Notes under the pieces: model-generated
What the model was told of the DNA's origin: nothing
Databases searched by the model: none
What the model saw: the letters and a program-made list of their open reading frames with translations, nothing else
Assembly: GCA_017450695.1 (NCBI GenBank)
Contig: JAFSTA010000254.1
Location: forward strand, 272-64,271
Source: Kiritimatiellia bacterium
GTDB lineage: Bacteria; Verrucomicrobiota; Kiritimatiellia; RFP12; UBA1067
Length of the DNA stretch: 64,000 bases
Reading direction: 5' to 3'
Program-made: the position numbers and the translations under genes
In this document: piece after piece, positions 55,454 through 64,000 of the stretch
Layout of the letters: the number at the start of each line of letters is the position of its first letter
Position numbering within the stretch: the stretch's first letter is position 1

Positions 55454-56335
55454 CTAGAACTGGTACTGAATCGAGAAGACGGCTCCCGAGCCGACCCCGA
55501 GATTCTTCGCCGAACCGCGCCGGTAGAACTTGTCCTTGTCGCCCGTCTCGGCGAACGCCGCCACGAGCGAAAGCCGATCCGTCACGAACCACGCGACATG
55601 CCCGTCGTAGTAGTCGTGGTTACGAATGCCGTCACCCGCATCCACGCCCTGCTTGTATTCCAGACCGATGGCGACATTCTTCGCCGGCAACACGTCAATG
55701 TTGCCGAACGCGACCGCATCGTACTCGTTGTGTCCGACAACGCCGTTCACCACCTCGTCGGAAAGCAGGACGCCGGCGGAGAGCAGGACTGGTACCGGTA
55801 ACTGCGTGATCAACTTTGTCGCCACCAGATAGGCGTCGAATCCGTCATCATCGAGTCCGAGCGCGTCAACCGTCTCCGAATCTGTGTACTTGTACACGCC
55901 GCCGACCGCGAACGCGGGCAACCACGCAGTGTCGAACGCGTTCTCGTCCAGAAACCGCAGTTTCGCACCAAGGTTGTAGGTGTTGATGTTCTTGTCGCCG
56001 TACTTGTGCGCGTTCACGAACCCGTACCCGGCGGAGACCTCCAGCCGATCGGCGAAGGTCAGCGCGGCGGAGGCCGCCCACCAGTTGATTCCCGCGTCGT
56101 TCAGATTGACGTACCAAAGCCCCGCCTGCGGCTTCGAGACGACCTTGTTCACGTCGTTCGACTCGCCGCCTTCCCACGGCAGACCAGCCGTGTACGCGAG
56201 TGGGTTGAAGGCGATACCGCCCGTACCCTGCAGGTTGTTCAGCGGGACACCCGCCCAAGCGGTTCCCGATCCGATTCCGAATGCCGCGACCGCAAGCGCG
56301 GCGCGAATGAGACTGTTGCTGTTCTTCTTGTTCAT
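55454..56335 (-). CDS. Outer-membrane beta-barrel protein (porin/transporter-like)
   Basis: Signal peptide. Alternating amphipathic strands. C-terminal ...FSIQYQF aromatic terminus. Confidence 0.55.
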   Translation of the reverse strand: MNKKNSNSLIRAALAVAAFGIGSGTAWAGVPLNNLQGTGGIAFNPLAYTAGLPWEGGESNDVNKVVSKPQAGLWYVNLNDAGINWWAASAALTFADRLEVSAGYGFVNAHKYGDKNINTYNLGAKLRFLDENAFDTAWLPAFAVGGVYKYTDSETVDALGLDDDGFDAYLVATKLITQLPVPVLLSAGVLLSDEVVNGVVGHNEYDAVAFGNIDVLPAKNVAIGLEYKQGVDAGDGIRNHDYYDGHVAWFVTDRLSLVAAFAETGDKDKFYRRGSAKNLGVGSGAVFSIQYQF

Positions 56336-56470
56336 GGTTCAAACTCCTTCTGTGGTTGGGACGCCTCGTTCCGGGGCGTCCTGTTTTTTCGCTGTTTCTG
56401 TCTGTGAATCGTTTGTTCAAAAGGAACCCCATCCGGCTTGGGGTGAAAGCCGGATGGCGTTCGACTCTGG

Positions 56471-57049
56471 CTAGGAAGCCTTTCCGAGCGCGGTCGCTTC
56501 CGGTACTTCGACCAACGCCCCCGTCTTGACATCGTAGATGTACCCGTAAATGGGGATGTACTTCGGAACGAGCGGATTCTCGCGAATCCTCCGGACATCC
56601 TCCACCACGCTGGCAGTCAGATCGGAAATCGGCAGGAAATCGATATGACGCGAATCGGCGCCGCCGTTCTTCGTCTCGTTGTACCAGCCATCCGGGCCGA
56701 GCGATGCCGTGTCCAGACTCTCGTCCAGCAGCGCGTGGATCACCGGGTTGGTGAACGTGAGCATCCCGCAGTCGCTGTGGTGGATCACGAACCATTCCTG
56801 CGTTCCGAGTAACTTGTGCGAGATGATCAATGACCGGATCGTCTCGTCGTTCACGCGTCCGCCGGCGTTGCGGATGACATGGGCGTCACCTTCCGCCAGC
56901 CCCGCAAACTTGGCGGGGTCGAGACGGGCATCCATACAGGTTACAATCGCGAAGTGACGGCCGGGCGGGATCGGCAGTTTGCCTTTCTCGCCAAAACCTT
57001 TTTGATAGGCGGCATTCGCCGCCAAAACCTCATCCAATACTTGACTCAT
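56471..57049 (-). CDS. Beta-class carbonic anhydrase
   Basis: Zinc ligands in CMDAR and HxDCG motifs. 192 aa. Confidence 0.85.
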
Positions 57050-57099: not shown

Positions 57100-58395
57100 T
57101 TAGATTGCGGCCAGCGCGTCTTCCAACGCACCGATGATATCATCGATGTGTTCCAGTCCGATCGAGAGGCGTATCAGTTCCGGAGCGATGCCGCCTTTCG
57201 CCAAATCCTCCTCCGACAACTGTGAATGCGTGGTCGAAGCGGGATGAATGATCAGGCTTTTCGCATCGCCTACATTCGCAAGAATCGAGAAGATGTCGCC
57301 GTTCGCCGCGTCCGCGAGCTTCCTCGCCTCTTCCGAACCGCCTTTCACGCCGAACACGACCACGCCTCCCGCGCCGTGCGGCAGATACTTCGCCGCCAGT
57401 TCCGGCTGGGTGAGCGAGGGATATTTCACCCACGCCACCTTCGGATGCTTCTGGAGCCACTGGGCGACGGCAAGCGCGTTCTCGCTGTGCTTCGCGATAC
57501 GGAGCGGAAGCGACTCCACGCCCTGCAGGAAAATCCACGCCGCGTCCGGCGCGAGCGTTGGCCCCTGATTGCGAATGCCGACCGTCAGCAGACGGATCGA
57601 GAACGCGATCGGCCTCAGCGGTTCCGGCAGGTCGTGCGCGAAGCGCAGTCCGTGGTACCCGGCATCCGGTTCGTTGTAGAGCGCGAACTTGGGATCCGTC
57701 CAGTCGAAACGTCCCGCATCGACCACCACGCCCCCGATGCCCGCGCCATGCCCGCCGATCCATTTGGAGAGCGAGTGGATCACCAGATCGGCCCCATGGT
57801 CAATAGCCCGGAGGAGAGGCGGCGGCGTGAACGTCGCGTCCACCACCAGCGGCAGGTGATGCTTCTTCGCGATGGCGGCGTACCCCTCGATATCCGCAAT
57901 GTCGAGCGCGGGGTTCCCGACCGCCTCGATGAACAGCAACCGCGTCTTCTCGTTGATGGCCGCTTCGACCGCCGCGAAGTCATTCACCGGCGTGAAGTTC
58001 ACATGGATTCCGACATTCGGCAGAATCGCGTCAAACTGCGAGAAGGTGCCGCCGTACAGGTTGCTCGCCGCCACGATCTCGTCCCCCGCGCGGGCGATGT
58101 TCGTAATCGTGAAATAAATCGCCGCCGTACCCGAAGAAAGCGTCTGCGCCGCCGCGCCGCCTTCCAGCGCCGCGATCCGCTTCGCCAGCACATCGTTCGT
58201 CGGGTTCATCAGGCGAGCGTAGATGTTACCCAGCTCGCGTAGACCGAAGAGATCGGCGCCATGCTGGGAGTTGCGGAAATTGTATGCCGTGGTGCGGTAC
58301 ACCGGCACGGCCCGTGCGGATGTCGCGGGATCCCCATGCGGATCCTGTCCGGCGTGAATCGCCAGCGTCTCAATGTGGTATTTTCTCTCGCTCAT
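57100..58395 (-). CDS. metY: O-acetylhomoserine/O-acetylserine sulfhydrylase (PLP-dependent)
   Basis: Cys/Met-metabolism PLP enzyme. SLSKWIGGHG PLP-lysine. Start at MSERKYHIETL. Confidence 0.85.
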   Translation of the reverse strand: MSERKYHIETLAIHAGQDPHGDPATSARAVPVYRTTAYNFRNSQHGADLFGLRELGNIYARLMNPTNDVLAKRIAALEGGAAAQTLSSGTAAIYFTITNIARAGDEIVAASNLYGGTFSQFDAILPNVGIHVNFTPVNDFAAVEAAINEKTRLLFIEAVGNPALDIADIEGYAAIAKKHHLPLVVDATFTPPPLLRAIDHGADLVIHSLSKWIGGHGAGIGGVVVDAGRFDWTDPKFALYNEPDAGYHGLRFAHDLPEPLRPIAFSIRLLTVGIRNQGPTLAPDAAWIFLQGVESLPLRIAKHSENALAVAQWLQKHPKVAWVKYPSLTQPELAAKYLPHGAGGVVVFGVKGGSEEARKLADAANGDIFSILANVGDAKSLIIHPASTTHSQLSEEDLAKGGIAPELIRLSIGLEHIDDIIGALEDALAAI

Positions 58396-58646
58396 GTGGG
58401 TTCTCCTTTCGTGTGCTTGAACGGGACTTATCATAGCACTTCTTTCGGGTATCGCATAATCGGAAAATATTGATCTTGTCGATAGGAAATTCCTATGGAT
58501 TTCCGGAGAGGGGGAGGTAGCGATGTATGACAGGAACGGCGACGAACACGTCGCCGCACAGAACAAACACATGGTTGGATGGTTCGTTCGCCACCCGCGC
58601 ACCATTTTGCGGCGGCTTAAGGATAAGCCGCCCTACCAGCCACCAC

Positions 58647-59441
58647 CTACCACACGATGGTGCGGCATTCGAAGACGGGGCCGTCTTTGCAGACGCGCGC
58701 CAAGTACTCGCTTCCGTCCTTGCGACGGATTTTCTGCACGCACCCCAGGCAGGCGCCGACACCGCAGACCATTCGCTCGTCCAGCGACAGCCAGGCACGG
58801 CACCCTTCCGCCTCCGCCATCGCGCCAACCGCCCGCAGCATTCCCGTCGGACCGCAGGCGAAGATCTCCGCCTTCTTCCCTTCCTCGCGGAGTTGACGCA
58901 ACGTCTCTTCCAGCGGGACCGTCACCAACCCCTCCGTTCCGCGTGAACCGTCCTGTGTCGCAATCTTCACCGTCCAGCCGATCGGCCCGAAATCCTCCGC
59001 CGCCAGGATGTCCGCGGCGGTTCGTCCGCCGATCAGCGTGATTCCCCTACCCCCCGCGCGCGCGGCGAGGAAACTGAGCGGGGCAACGCCGTATCCGCCC
59101 GCCACGCAGACCGGCACGGTTCCCTTCGCGGGTTTGGGGAAACCGTTGCCGAGCGGACCGAGAACCGGAACCGTGTCCCCTTCCCGAACCCGGCTCAACG
59201 CACCCGAACCGCGTCCCACGACCTTGAACAGGATGCGCAGTTCCCCGCCTTCCGCGCCGTAAATGCTGAATGGACGCCGCAGGGCGCTCGTCTCTAGCCC
59301 GGGAACGCGGAGATGCACAAATTGTCCCGGACGTGCCCGGCCGGCAATCTGCGGCGCCTGCAACCGCAACGTCCAGTATTCCGCCCCGACCGGGGAAATC
59401 GACAACACCTTCGCCCCTTCGTCCCAACAATCCGTCTTCAT
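58647..59441 (-). CDS. PyrK-family FAD/NAD(P)-binding electron-transfer protein with C-terminal [2Fe-2S] cysteine cluster
   Basis: RPFSIYG FAD motif, GGYGVAPL NAD motif, C-x4-C-x2-C...C. No pyrD or asrA/asrC partner in the window. Confidence 0.65.
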   Translation of the reverse strand: MKTDCWDEGAKVLSISPVGAEYWTLRLQAPQIAGRARPGQFVHLRVPGLETSALRRPFSIYGAEGGELRILFKVVGRGSGALSRVREGDTVPVLGPLGNGFPKPAKGTVPVCVAGGYGVAPLSFLAARAGGRGITLIGGRTAADILAAEDFGPIGWTVKIATQDGSRGTEGLVTVPLEETLRQLREEGKKAEIFACGPTGMLRAVGAMAEAEGCRAWLSLDERMVCGVGACLGCVQKIRRKDGSEYLARVCKDGPVFECRTIVW

Positions 59442-59617
59442 GACCCTTCCTTTCCCCCGCGCGGCTCCAAGGCGCTACGCGCAGTTCCCAGTTCCGAAAG
59501 ATGCCTTCCGTGAGTTCCGTGGGTTGGACAGGCCATCCGCCGGCTCGTCCAATACGACACGTGACATACACGACTCATCCCGACCGCCTCGCCGCGACCG
59601 CCCCAGTACCGTTCCAA

Positions 59618-62600
59618 CTACGGACGCGTCGTCACCTTGACCGCGCCGTTCGTATGGACGGTAACATCCAGCACCGCATTGGTCCCCTGCAGTTCCGGCG
59701 GCGCGGGAGGCCCTGCCGGCTGCAACTCGTTTTTCGCCTCCAGATAGACCATCTGCGTCCGCACGCGGCGGATCTCCGTGTTGACAAGAGCCGCGGCGTC
59801 CATGTGTCCCGCCACCGTCAGCTTCTTTTGGAAATCGCGCAGTTTTTGCAGGTATTCTTCCGTGATGCCGATCACCCGTTCCGAACGTTTCCTGCGAATC
59901 GACACCTGCTCGTCCACATACCGCTGCTGCAGGACAGGCAGTTCAGGCGCCGCCAAGTCCGCGAGATTCCCCGCCGTCAGCTCGCGGTCGGCCTCGAACC
60001 GCCCGATCTCGTACCGCACACTCTCCCACCCGCTGTAGTTTCCGGCGCGCTGGTACTGATCCATCAGTTCATGCAGCTTGCCGAGATAGGCATCCGGCCA
60101 CGCGTCCATCTGCCCCGCGAATTCCTTCATCGCGGCGGTCAGCGTCTTCTCGTACTCCGCGCGCATCTGCTCCACATCGCGCAGACGGGTTTCTCCCGTG
60201 GTGGTGGAGAGAAGCACGACCTGGGGCGGTCCAGGTTCCGAGTCCGCCGCATGTTGCGCGGCGGCCAGCGTCTTCTCCGCCTCCAGCATCTCCGACGCGT
60301 TCTTGACACGCAGAATCTCGTCGTTCACGGATTTCGCCTCGTCGAGGTTTCCTTTCTTCGTCAGACCGCTCTGCAGTTCGGTCAACTCGTTCACATACTT
60401 CTTGCCGAGCGTCACCACCTTGCGGGAGTGTACGAGCCGCTGGTCACTCTGCAGCTGGCGGTATTTCTTCCACAGCAACTTCAGCTCAGAAGAGGCGGTG
60501 TTGGTCTCCGTGCCAGACGGCAGCAGGTGCGTTTCGTCGAAGCGTGTGATCTCCGACTGCACCTGCATGTATCCCTCGAAGTCACCCGACTCTTGCCGCA
60601 CTTGCTGGAGCTGCTCCAGTTCGTTCAGGTAAGACGTCGGCCATGTCTGATCGAAGTCGTGCATCTGCGCGGCGATACCCTCCAGCTGCCGCTCGTAGTC
60701 CCCCTTCTTCTTGCGCAACACCAGCGCCGTCTCGGAGACGGTCTTCACATTCGGCGCGTTCGTCGCGGCTGCGGTAACGGGGAGGGAAGCAGCCTTCTCG
60801 CCGCGCATGAAGAAATCGTTCAGCCCGCTCTTTGGCGGCAGAAGCGGGGTCACGCAATACTCCGTGAAATGCGGGATAATCCGTCCCGTCCAGTCATAGA
60901 AGGCGTGCGCCGGCTCATAGGCGAGCCGCAACGCGGTCGGGAACGGGGGCTTCTGGAAATGCGCCACGACCGGCAGACTGATCAGGTAGAACATCATCAT
61001 CACAAAGCAACAGACGAGCGTCCAGAAGGTGTTCCGCACGACCTCGTGCCGGTGGATCGCGCGCCGGATCTTCATCAGCTCCGGATCGTCCGACGCCACG
61101 ATGCGTTCCAGGTCGTTGTAGAGCCGCACCGTCGAATGCCACTCGCCGTTGTGGATGCACTGCTGGGCGCGCAGGATGTCGCGCTGGGCGGTGAGCGCCG
61201 GAATCTGCCGCAGCTCCGCCTCGAACTCGTTCCGGTCCTCCGCCAGCAGCCGGTACTGCTGGATGAACCTCGCCGCGCGTTCATAGTTCTCGGCATTCAT
61301 CTCGATGGGGATCTGCTCTTTGAGCTGTTCCCGGCGACGGATCAGGCGCCCCGCCTCTTCGCGCATGGTGGCGATTTCCTGCAGGTACTTCCGGCCCGAA
61401 GGCCCGGCCGGCTCAAACCCGTTGACGCGTCCCGCGTAGGAGACCACGCGGTCGTAACGTTGCAGCGACATCGCCTCCTTCATCTTCCTGATCAGCTGCT
61501 GCACGACCTCGTAGGCGCGCGCGTCGGCACCGCACGTACCGCAGTACTGAACGCCGACGAAGGTATCCGCGCCGCACTCTGGACACGACTCGCTGCCGTC
61601 CCATCCGCACTCCGCGCAGAACTTGGTGGTCAACGGATTCACCGCGTCGCACCACTTGCACCGCCAAGTCGTCTTGACCGTCGGGATCTCGATCCGCGTC
61701 TTGTTCTGCACTTTCTGCAACGCGTCCATAAACGCGGCGGCGGAAACCCAGCGCTGCTCCTTGTCGGTCGCGAGCGCCTTGACAACCAGTTCGCGCAGCG
61801 TGACGGGAATGTCCTGTTCACGGAAGTAGCGCGGGTTCTGTCCCGTCAGCATGAAATAGAGCAACGCCCCCAGCCCGTACACGTCCGAGCGCTCGTCCGT
61901 ATGCCGCGCGTCGCTCTCCTGTTCCGGCGCCCCATATCCGAGCGAGAGCAGCTTCTCGCCCGGCACCGTCAGCTGCGACTCGTCGAGTCCCGCCTGCTTG
62001 AGCCGCGCCAACCCGAAATCCACAATCGTCGGTTCGCTGATTTTGTCGAGCAGAATGTTGCTCGGGTTCAGGTCGCGGTGGATCACGCCACACGAGTGCG
62101 CGTACGCGACCGCCGAGGTGATCTTCAGAATCAGGTCGATAGACTCGTCTGCGGAAAGCGAGCCATGCCGGGAGACGTAGCGGTCCAGCGTGAGCGGCGG
62201 GTTCGGATTGACCAGCCCGCCCGCCTCGGTCTTCTTGCGGACGATCGTATCGTCAGGTCCCGCGATGTACTCCATCACGATGTACGGCCCGTCGTTGTCC
62301 TCCCCAAGTGCGTAGATATGGACGATGTGGTTGTGGCTCAGCGAGGCGACCGCACGCGCCTCGTGCAGAAACCGCTTGCGCAGGACGGCGATCGACTGCG
62401 CCTGATGGTTGAGTCGCTTGATCGCGACGAAACGCCCGAGCCGCTTGTCGCGCGCCAGATACACGATGCCCATGCCGCCGCTTCCGATTTTGCTGTAAAT
62501 CGTGTACTGGCTGAAGAGATCCTCGTTCCCCGGTTCCGAAACGGACTGATCTCCTTCCGGCGGGATTACAACCGTATGATCGCCGGACTCGCCGGAGACG

Positions 62601-62689
62601 GGCGTGACAATCCGTTCCGTCTTCGGGTCCTGATAACCCGTATCCGTCGGCGTCACCTCGATTCTGTCCGTCTCGTTTTTCTCGTCCAT
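59618..62689 (-). CDS. Membrane Ser/Thr protein kinase with double zinc ribbon, single TM and a periplasmic domain built of ~60-aa repeats
   Basis: Hanks kinase motifs GSGGMGIVY, AIK, HRDLNPSNILL, DFGLA. Four CxxC pairs (CKWCD...CAECG...CPECG...CGTCG). TM FWTLVCCFVMMMFYLISLPVV. Four repeats of W..YL..L..L...Y...G...GW..V..EI.RFE. Confidence 0.85.
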   Translation of the reverse strand: MDEKNETDRIEVTPTDTGYQDPKTERIVTPVSGESGDHTVVIPPEGDQSVSEPGNEDLFSQYTIYSKIGSGGMGIVYLARDKRLGRFVAIKRLNHQAQSIAVLRKRFLHEARAVASLSHNHIVHIYALGEDNDGPYIVMEYIAGPDDTIVRKKTEAGGLVNPNPPLTLDRYVSRHGSLSADESIDLILKITSAVAYAHSCGVIHRDLNPSNILLDKISEPTIVDFGLARLKQAGLDESQLTVPGEKLLSLGYGAPEQESDARHTDERSDVYGLGALLYFMLTGQNPRYFREQDIPVTLRELVVKALATDKEQRWVSAAAFMDALQKVQNKTRIEIPTVKTTWRCKWCDAVNPLTTKFCAECGWDGSESCPECGADTFVGVQYCGTCGADARAYEVVQQLIRKMKEAMSLQRYDRVVSYAGRVNGFEPAGPSGRKYLQEIATMREEAGRLIRRREQLKEQIPIEMNAENYERAARFIQQYRLLAEDRNEFEAELRQIPALTAQRDILRAQQCIHNGEWHSTVRLYNDLERIVASDDPELMKIRRAIHRHEVVRNTFWTLVCCFVMMMFYLISLPVVAHFQKPPFPTALRLAYEPAHAFYDWTGRIIPHFTEYCVTPLLPPKSGLNDFFMRGEKAASLPVTAAATNAPNVKTVSETALVLRKKKGDYERQLEGIAAQMHDFDQTWPTSYLNELEQLQQVRQESGDFEGYMQVQSEITRFDETHLLPSGTETNTASSELKLLWKKYRQLQSDQRLVHSRKVVTLGKKYVNELTELQSGLTKKGNLDEAKSVNDEILRVKNASEMLEAEKTLAAAQHAADSEPGPPQVVLLSTTTGETRLRDVEQMRAEYEKTLTAAMKEFAGQMDAWPDAYLGKLHELMDQYQRAGNYSGWESVRYEIGRFEADRELTAGNLADLAAPELPVLQQRYVDEQVSIRRKRSERVIGITEEYLQKLRDFQKKLTVAGHMDAAALVNTEIRRVRTQMVYLEAKNELQPAGPPAPPELQGTNAVLDVTVHTNGAVKVTTRP

Positions 62690-63060
62690 GCAGCAGACCT
62701 CCGTTTCATTCTCAAATGACGCCAGTATATCAAACCCCGCAACCAATATTCAATCAATATTCAATCCTGAGTATTAGGGTGTGGCGCATCTCCGAATCGT
62801 ACATGTATCCCGGAATCGACTCGGTTTCGCCGTCCGAACAGATACGCATTCCAAGCGGCACGATGCGGATACGCCCAGTGTCAATCGCCACTGTGGTTTT
62901 TCCGCGCGTGTCGGTTGTCGCGTGTCGCATGGTCTCGTCCGTCGCGTATGTCCCGTCCCGCCGCGAAAGACACGCGACACGCGACAGGCGAAACGACCCA
63001 ATTCCACGGCGCGGAACCGTCATCGAGGGACGCGCTCCGTCGCGTCCGAGACAGCCCAAC

Positions 63061-63273: not shown

Positions 63274-64000
63274 CTAGTTGGAGTTTCCGTGGACAGGGCG
63301 AATAGACTGCCCGTCATCGCGGTAGCCGTAGCCCGTGTCGTGGTTGCCCGAATCGAAATGCAATATTCCGGCGAGGTGTCCGATGTTGCTGTTCGAGTTC
63401 GGGACGGACGACCAATAGATGCCGCACCAACCGGAACAGAGCGAAGTCCCCCTGCCGAACCCGGCGCAGGGGAGGAAGATGCTGTTGGAAGCGTAAGTAC
63501 CCCTTCCGCGAACAACGTACCCGTTTACGCCGAACATCGTCGTCCATGTCCAGTCGCATTTGTTGTTGAGATCGGATAGTTCCTGAAATGTCGGCATACG
63601 CCAGCCGTCGCCCCACTGTACCTGCGCCGCGTCATGTGCCGGCGCGAGGACGTACGCATCCTTCGACACGATCCTCCCCTCGCTCTGCAAAGTAGCAATG
63701 TTCTTATTGGACGTTGGACATACCCCGAATGAAAAATTGAACGTCTCTCCTTCCGGATGATATCCCGTCGTGTCGCCCCACCAGAAATAGAGACCGTAGT
63801 CCCAAGGATTATCCGCACCGATATTCCTGTCAGCCCAATACGGGCCTCCCTCCCAAAGCTGAACCTTTTTGGGGGTCTCTTGCGTTTCGGTTAAAATCGT
63901 CTCACCATCGTCTTTCAACGTAATGGACTCGTTTGTAGCGATTAGAACCGCCGCGCTACCCTTGCCCTTCAGGACGGCGGTACCGTACCCGTTGCCGCCC
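63274..64000 (-). CDS. FISUMP (Fibrobacter succinogenes major paralogous) domain protein, 5' part beyond window end
   Basis: FISUMP hallmarks LWEGGPYWADRNIGA, GWRMPTFQEL and CAGFGRGTSLCSGWCGIYWSS. ORF stays open to the window edge. Upstream residues GYGTAVLKGKGSAAVL match the C-terminus of the 31237-36855 protein. Confidence 0.7.
   Translation of the reverse strand, partial: GGNGYGTAVLKGKGSAAVLIATNESITLKDDGETILTETQETPKKVQLWEGGPYWADRNIGADNPWDYGLYFWWGDTTGYHPEGETFNFSFGVCPTSNKNIATLQSEGRIVSKDAYVLAPAHDAAQVQWGDGWRMPTFQELSDLNNKCDWTWTTMFGVNGYVVRGRGTYASNSIFLPCAGFGRGTSLCSGWCGIYWSSVPNSNSNIGHLAGILHFDSGNHDTGYGYRDDGQSIRPVHGNSN

Follow-up and report, generated by a model that had tools for sequence, protein, structure and literature searches.

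The locus studied here raises the question of what a bacterial receptor-type kinase could perceive through an extracytoplasmic region that belongs to no catalogued protein family. The gene is located at 59618..62689 on the minus strand of a stretch of 64,000 nt (the window) from a Kiritimatiellia bacterium, contig JAFSTA010000254.1. According to the open reading frame (ORF) list, the translation and scans with Pfam and NCBIfam, its coding sequence starts with ATG, comprises 1023 amino acids plus stop and encodes a receptor-type Hanks Ser/Thr kinase. Input domains have been described for few bacterial Hanks kinases, among them the PASTA repeats, the propeller of PknD and the sensor domain of PknH; to our knowledge, the sensed input is unknown for most of them. 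The analysis presented below points, with a probability of roughly 0.55, to a single-pass receptor kinase in which extracytoplasmic modules provide the input by docking or oligomerisation, relayed through the transmembrane helix to the kinase domain. The input role of the modules is predicted from several lines of evidence, while any identity proposed for their partner is speculative.

A preliminary description of the sequence had proposed a kinase domain followed by a double zinc ribbon, a helical segment, one transmembrane helix and an ectodomain of about 440 residues. This architecture was borne out by Pfam and by the translation, in which 446 residues follow the transmembrane helix. The helix itself (aa 555-577; 60959..61027, minus strand, as for all protein segments below) is the sole hydrophobic segment, with a Kyte-Doolittle peak of 2.48. 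In the AlphaFold2 (AF2) model it is continuous with a juxtamembrane helix (helix 536-578), and positive residues are found on its N-terminal side. A single-pass topology with the N-terminus inside and the ectodomain outside the cytoplasm is predicted on the basis of the one transmembrane helix after a cytoplasmic kinase, and many non-kinase proteins that share the ectodomain module have hydrophobic N-termini resembling signal peptides, as judged by crude hydropathy only. These putative N-terminal signal peptides of the homologues would place the module outside the cytoplasm.

The ectodomain was found to be repetitive at two levels. In Smith-Waterman comparisons against shuffled sequences, two segments termed A1 and A2 resembled each other with z=13 and two segments termed B1 and B2 with z=19 (0 of 300 shuffles reached the score), whereas A halves and B halves compared with each other gave weaker values (z 2.7-5.5). 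Because the A1/A2 and B1/B2 pairs are strong and the A-B pairs weak, the layout was assigned as (A-B)x2, i.e. two modules of about 158 aa. Module 1 spans aa 656-814 (60248..60724; A1 ~656-727, B1 ~733-814) and module 2 spans aa 836-994 (59708..60184; A2 ~836-907, B2 ~913-994). Both match a module profile built from 59 sequences over profile positions 3-157, with domain E-values of 6.7e-50 and 1.9e-51, respectively. The four repeats of about 60 aa that had been described earlier thus exceed chance, but the unit is the ~158-aa module, present twice and consisting each time of two hairpins of about 75 aa; the two repeats that had been quoted as examples are real, yet both are A-type halves.

The two halves of a module are themselves related. 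In an alignment of 150 modules of the wider family, the profile of half A matched the profile of half B with 97.9% probability (E 6.3e-13, 71 columns), and the spacing Y-15-G-11-E-3-R is common to both halves. The shared hairpin motif reads Y-x3-L-x2-L-x7-G-x7-V-x2-E-x2-R, and is elaborated to WP-x2-Y-x3-L-x2-L-x4-Q-x2-GD-x2-GW-x2-V-x2-E-x2-RF in half A and to Y-x3-L-x2-LQK-x-LT-x2-G-x4-A-x2-VN-x-EI-x-RV in half B. As read from these alignments, a hairpin of ~75 aa with one long and one short helix was duplicated in ancient times to give the ~158-aa module, an old duplication nested in a younger one.

Modelled alone by AF2 with the 59-sequence alignment, module 2 reached a predicted local distance difference test (pLDDT) score of 96.4 and a predicted TM-score (pTM) of 0.86, with helices at module residues 2-46, 50-66, 81-124, 128-142 and 145-154, the first four being 45, 17, 44 and 15 residues long. 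Module 1 showed corresponding helices at 653-701, 704-720, 734-778, 782-796 and 799-817 (pLDDT ~86-91). Conserved hydrophobic positions recur along both long helices in a heptad-like manner, and the long helices probably pair lengthwise, with the short helices as caps, one to an end. Both modules are predicted with confidence in the full-length model, where disordered linkers (629-651 and 817-832) set the folded domains apart. The membrane-proximal region (aa 579-652; 60734..60955) consists of short helices followed by disordered linker (pLDDT 60-83 for 585-628 and <50 for 629-651) and is the least conserved part of the protein, with 17% identity among orthologues. A Pro-rich C-terminal tail (aa 995-1023; 59621..59707) is likewise predicted to be disordered (pLDDT <50; residues 993-1023 in the full-length model) and is not conserved among orthologues.

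The module could not be attributed to any known family. The region aa 580-1023 gave no Pfam-A or NCBIfam match, even at an E-value of 10, and when eight module sequences were scanned singly none could be assigned to a known sensor or repeat family and no match was common to three or more of the eight. Sequence profile searches of the PDB gave nothing better than E 0.02, and with Foldseek no PDB structure reached E<=0.001, the top match having E 0.15 and a TM-score of 0.32. Designed helical repeats, designed TPR-like trimers, MamA, Smac/DIABLO and ferritins were the top Foldseek matches, all with TM-scores <=0.35. Smac/DIABLO (PDB 1few, 6jx6) shares the shape of a bundle of long helices, but at E >=0.35, TM-scores of ~0.25-0.33 and a root-mean-square deviation above 11 A this is a generic helical likeness and no homology. 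Known helical sensor domains, namely CpxP/Spy (LTXXQ), 4HB_MCP/TarH, HBM, CHASE3 and NIT, were considered as candidates and found no support in Pfam or Foldseek. As far as Pfam-A, NCBIfam and the PDB were tested, the ~158-aa module is uncatalogued, as the preliminary description had maintained for its repeats. A literature search on Kiritimatiellae kinases, LamG, sigma factors and zinc-ribbon Hanks kinases returned nothing relevant.

The only recurrent likeness was to TPR proteins, and a degenerate TPR- or Sel1-type solenoid that has diverged past the Pfam thresholds has to be weighed here. The turn of the hairpin, L-x2-L-x7-G-D-Y/L-x-G/A-W/A, resembles the helix A-turn-helix B junction of a TPR, so that a faint TPR-like signature is present at each helix-turn-helix junction. 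The best sequence matches in the PDB are designed consensus TPR (CTPR) proteins (for example 7obi and 5fzr; E 0.02-0.2), and the Foldseek matches named above include designed TPR-like trimers and MamA. All of this remains below threshold. The per-repeat E-values of the CTPR matches are 29 or worse, and no Pfam TPR or Sel1 match was obtained at E<=10 on 580-1023 or on any of the eight modules, so that membership of these families was rejected and the assignment that could have overturned the earlier description was not obtained. Unit and helix lengths also differ, a unit of ~75 aa with a first helix of 45 residues standing against a helix pair of 34-36 aa in TPRs, and with only two hairpins per module no solenoid forms. 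A degenerate solenoid is considered very unlikely.

The module is not peculiar to the kinase of the window. When 1.84 billion cluster representatives were searched exhaustively with HMMER and a profile of eight modules, 2502 proteins were retrieved at E<=1e-3, of which 1081 reached E<=1e-10 and 93 reached E<=1e-30; the earlier notion of a new repeat can be kept in the sense that the module is uncatalogued, but not in the sense of one restricted to this protein. Word-index searching was insensitive for this family, since the C-terminal region retrieved five proteins and the 59-sequence alignment none. Three architectures were distinguished among the best 150 of the 2502 representatives. The first consists of orthologous kinases with zinc ribbon, transmembrane helix and two modules (~960-1010 aa), and the second of kinases of the same architecture with a single module (~780-810 aa), which terminate directly after it. 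The third and most numerous group is made up of proteins 350-500 aa long, in which a hydrophobic N-terminus is followed by one module at about residues 25-185 and a further 200-300 residues. Two or three modules occur in a few proteins, and the secreted forms combine a putative signal peptide and one to three modules with other domains. Among 75 non-kinase members, Laminin_G_3 was found in eight and F5/8 type C in one, one carries two modules together with LamG and a trypsin-like peptidase, and most C-terminal regions had no Pfam match. A seemingly kinase-less architecture with a transmembrane helix at about residue 160 and two modules was rejected, as BLASTP identified its members as N-terminally truncated kinase orthologues.

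In most of the secreted single-module proteins (P0005, P0026 and similar; loci L006 and L007) the C-terminal ~250 aa are conserved, with the consensus ...G..FYG...SV...QG.S...L and no Pfam match. They may form another domain that is missing from the catalogues, probably rich in beta structure.

The distribution and conservation of the module bear on its function. The modules are the only folded elements of the ectodomain and the single-module orthologues end directly after the module; for these reasons the modules are regarded as the candidate input of the kinase. A different role, as passive stalk or spacer, would make them rigid helical rods, with the kinase regulated in the cytoplasm via the zinc ribbon and helical domain. 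The all-helical structure with helices of 44-45 residues, the invariable position directly after a signal peptide or membrane anchor, and the far stronger conservation of the cytoplasmic ribbon and helical domain compared with the ectodomain are consistent with such a role. The kinases, however, have nothing beyond the modules that a stalk could display, and the disordered linkers between the modules argue against a rigid ruler. Moreover, about 25 positions of the module are strongly conserved, many of them polar, in a family with less than 40% identity, which would be unexpected for a mere spacer. A purely passive role is judged unlikely.

These approximately 25 positions are conserved in kinases and secreted proteins alike across the 150 modules, and include the polar residues Y33, Q45, E59, R62, Y111, T123, N135, E137 and R140. 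They also bear on the possibility, raised in the preliminary description, that each module is a dedicated ligand sensor which binds a small molecule or glycan, in the manner of 4HB or Cache domains, and thereby activates the kinase, two modules offering two sites or specificities. Such a sensor would fit the modules as sole folded part of the ectodomain and their number of one or two among orthologues, as in sensor arrays. It would also fit the rapid evolution of the ectodomain, the fastest of the protein: its identity among orthologues is 29-30%, against 62% for the kinase domain and 76% for the zinc ribbon, and receptor ectodomains often diverge faster than other parts. The retention of the same polar positions in kinases and in unrelated secreted proteins, on the other hand, speaks against diversified pockets, no likeness to known helical sensor folds was seen in Pfam or by Foldseek against the PDB, and in the secreted proteins the LamG or F5/8-C partner domains are themselves likely binders. 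A dedicated ligand sensor is considered rather unlikely. Because the polar signature is conserved in every context in which the module occurs, docking or oligomerisation is favoured over a variable small-molecule pocket, and a generic role of this kind (or in binding of the envelope) appears more likely than a specific ligand pocket.

Under the favoured docking or oligomerisation mechanism, the two modules would fold independently in the periplasm and be strung together, bead-like, by flexible linkers; in each, long and short helices would alternate (long-short-long-short), with a small fifth helix added. The modules could associate with one another, with a periplasmic or envelope component, or with further copies of the module on secreted LamG or protease proteins. 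Such association would alter the oligomeric state, or the register of the helix that passes through the transmembrane and juxtamembrane region. The signal would then run from the juxtamembrane and transmembrane helix to the helical domain and zinc ribbon, and lead to dimerisation of the kinase and autophosphorylation of its activation loop, in which T241 is invariant. The step of dimerisation and activation-loop phosphorylation is taken over by analogy from PknB-type receptor kinases.

Several points weigh against this mechanism. The conserved polar residues of the module could be purely structural. The pTM of the full-length AF2 model is 0.36, so the geometry between domains is not defined, and a monomer model is uninformative on oligomerisation. 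A substitution in the catalytic loop (Asn208, see below) may render this particular kinase copy inactive. The 64-kb window contains no further module-bearing ORF, hence no module-bearing secreted protein, and at the orthologous loci examined no conserved neighbour ties the kinases to module-bearing secreted proteins. In a bolder form of the idea, the module would be a hitherto undescribed periplasmic docking domain that pairs the transmembrane Hanks kinase with secreted proteins carrying the module and LamG, F5/8-C, protease or putative beta domains, and so relays signals from glycans or the envelope. This bolder form is decidedly unlikely on present evidence; if it were true, bacterial Hanks kinases of Kiritimatiellota and of further members of the Planctomycetes-Verrucomicrobia-Chlamydiae group would receive their input by a new logic, through docking of module to module.

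In Kiritimatiellae-like bacteria of gut and rumen, a conserved kinase family has the module as its only ectodomain, and secreted lectin-like proteins carry it as well. With its thousands of members, the module lends itself to description as a new domain family, to the determination of its structure and to screens for partners, and it may help to explain how events at the envelope are coupled to phosphorylation in polysaccharide-degrading bacteria. What is new is the ectodomain family; the design of a receptor Hanks kinase is known, and no concept is overturned.

On the cytoplasmic side, the protein kinase domain (aa 62-337; 61679..62506) matched Pfam PF00069 with E 1.9e-39 and 136.1 bits, above the cut-off of 31.7. 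The glycine-rich loop GSGGMG (69-74), VAIK with K91, the alpha-C glutamate E110, H204-R205-D206, N211, DFG (224-226) and APE (254-256) could all be located. Across 20 orthologues, G71, G72, G74, K91, E110, H204, R205, D206, N211, D224, F225, G226, A254, P255 and E256 are invariant and G69 nearly so; T241 of the activation loop is also invariant among orthologues. The domain was modelled by AF2 with pLDDT ~80-94, apart from the activation loop, which is disordered at 236-250. NCBIfam matches were confined to the kinase portions of the models for PknB, PknD and the like, and all scored far under their cut-offs.

The catalytic loop of the window copy reads HRDLNPSN and has Asn208 (codon AAC; 62066..62068) in place of the lysine of HRDLKxxN, which in Ser/Thr kinases contacts the gamma-phosphate. 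This assignment rests on the sequence and on comparison with orthologous loci: the codon is AAG, encoding lysine, in nine out of nine of them, including the two closest (L001 and L002), and column 208 is lysine in 19 of 19 aligned orthologues, so that the window copy alone has asparagine. The copy thus departs from the catalytic-loop lysine pattern of Ser/Thr kinases, while its membership of the Pkinase fold stands. It may be catalytically weakened or an inactive pseudokinase; alternatively, the asparagine may be a strain variant or the result of an assembly or base error.

The kinase domain is followed by the double zinc ribbon (aa 344-387; 61529..61660), which matched Pfam DZR (PF12773) with 28.4 bits, above the gathering score of 27.3. 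Its four CxxC pairs (CKWC, CAEC, CPEC and CGTC), recognised already in the preliminary description, comprise C344/C347, C358/C361, C369/C372 and C383/C386, and all eight cysteines are invariant in the 20 orthologues. The same holds for W342, R343, W346, D348, N351, G362, W363 and G365, giving the signature TWRCKWCD.VNP...CGWDG. Its mean identity to 13 orthologues is 76%, against 62% for the kinase domain, and no other segment of the protein is conserved as strongly; in the AF2 model the ribbon forms four short strands. Its top conservation and the invariant residues other than cysteine suggest a specific binding role.

Between ribbon and membrane lies a cytoplasmic domain of six helices (aa 390-530; 61100..61522), delimited by the AF2 model (pLDDT 90-96) and by conservation among orthologues (40% mean identity). 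It gave no Pfam or NCBIfam match above threshold. Superficially it resembles the extracytoplasmic module in its long-short-long-short pattern of helices and in a similar motif, NYE.A..FI..YR, and was considered as its relative; this was rejected on the basis of an hhalign probability below 1% (E 0.1-0.4).

Among known systems, the PASTA kinases (PknB of M. tuberculosis, PrkC of B. subtilis and StkP of S. pneumoniae) are alike in the single-pass N-in topology that is predicted for the window protein, with an ectodomain made of a short array of repeated modules that fold independently, and PknB_PASTA_kin is the best NCBIfam match of the kinase domain (7.4e-62). The match to this model (NF033483) reaches, however, only 210 bits against a cut-off of 450 and covers the kinase part only, with no PASTA domain detected by Pfam. 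The modules of the window protein are moreover all-helical and ~158 aa long, and a zinc ribbon and folded helical domain take the place of the disordered juxtamembrane linker. PknG of M. tuberculosis combines a rubredoxin-like CxxCG domain, a kinase and a TPR domain in a soluble protein, with the metal site at the N-terminus and the TPRs in the cytoplasm. Both proteins have a Hanks kinase flanked by a four-cysteine metal module and a helical repeat domain; in the window protein, by contrast, the ribbon lies on the C-terminal side of the kinase, a membrane anchor is present and the repeat modules are predicted to be extracellular. The ribbon itself, with four CxxC pairs at DZR spacing, is comparable to the double zinc ribbon on cyanobacterial PP2C phosphatases (PRK14559), whose N-terminal ribbon matched with 1.3e-4, but it differs in being fused to the C-lobe of a kinase and in its additional invariant Trp, Arg and Asn residues.

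An alternative TTG start at 62746 would lengthen the kinase by 19 aa. A sigma-70-like promoter match (TTGAAT, 18 nt spacer, TATACT, with TG extension) is located at 62724..62753 on the minus strand, inside this extension and just upstream of the ATG; it is a consensus match only, one such site being found where 0.8 were expected. The orthologue with 95% identity (L001) also starts with MDEK. The ATG at 62689 is favoured over the TTG because of the promoter match within the extension and this common start. An ORF of 1072 aa at 59501..62719 on the plus strand runs antisense to the entire kinase gene in near-exact overlap and is taken to be a shadow ORF of coding DNA with ~63% G+C, and no gene.

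In a scan with the single protein, the sole genome match was a Kiritimatiellae metagenome-assembled genome from sheep rumen (L002), whose copy is an intact ORF of 1036 codons with 87% identity over the C-terminal 378 residues. The copy on the metagenome contig L001 (2164-5240), for which the 95% identity applies to the N-terminal 567 residues, is split, either by a frameshift (pseudogene) or by an assembly error, into two ORFs, 626 and 409 aa long, whose overlap falls in the transmembrane region.

Downstream of the kinase gene, on the same strand and after a gap of 177 nt, a gene at 58647..59441 encodes a PyrK-like FAD/NAD/[2Fe-2S] oxidoreductase, as identified by Pfam DHODB_Fe-S_bind (2.8e-13) and the NCBIfam PyrK equivalog model (170 bits, under the cut-off of 314). 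The same pair was found at L003 (11004-11759) and L008 (5511-6287), with gaps of 28 and 3 nt, where the PyrK-like gene adjoins kinase orthologues of 47% and 38% identity and the upstream genes differ; it is not beside the orthologue of 35% identity. No pyrD adjoins the gene in the window. The PyrK-like protein might be an operon partner of the kinase or one of its substrates.

Upstream of the kinase, an ORF of 214 aa at 63274..63918 (minus strand) was considered as a candidate Fib_succ_major-type protein. This could not be confirmed, since it gave no NCBIfam match and in Pfam only a weak match to Lcl_C (23 bits, under the cut-off of 34.9). Further downstream on the same strand lie genes with no evident link to the kinase: one for an O-acetylhomoserine sulfhydrylase at 57100..58404 (TIGR01326, 2.7e-165) and, within 55454..57049 (minus strand), those for a beta-class carbonic anhydrase (Pro_CA, 1.5e-12) and a DUF3034 protein (2.6e-22).

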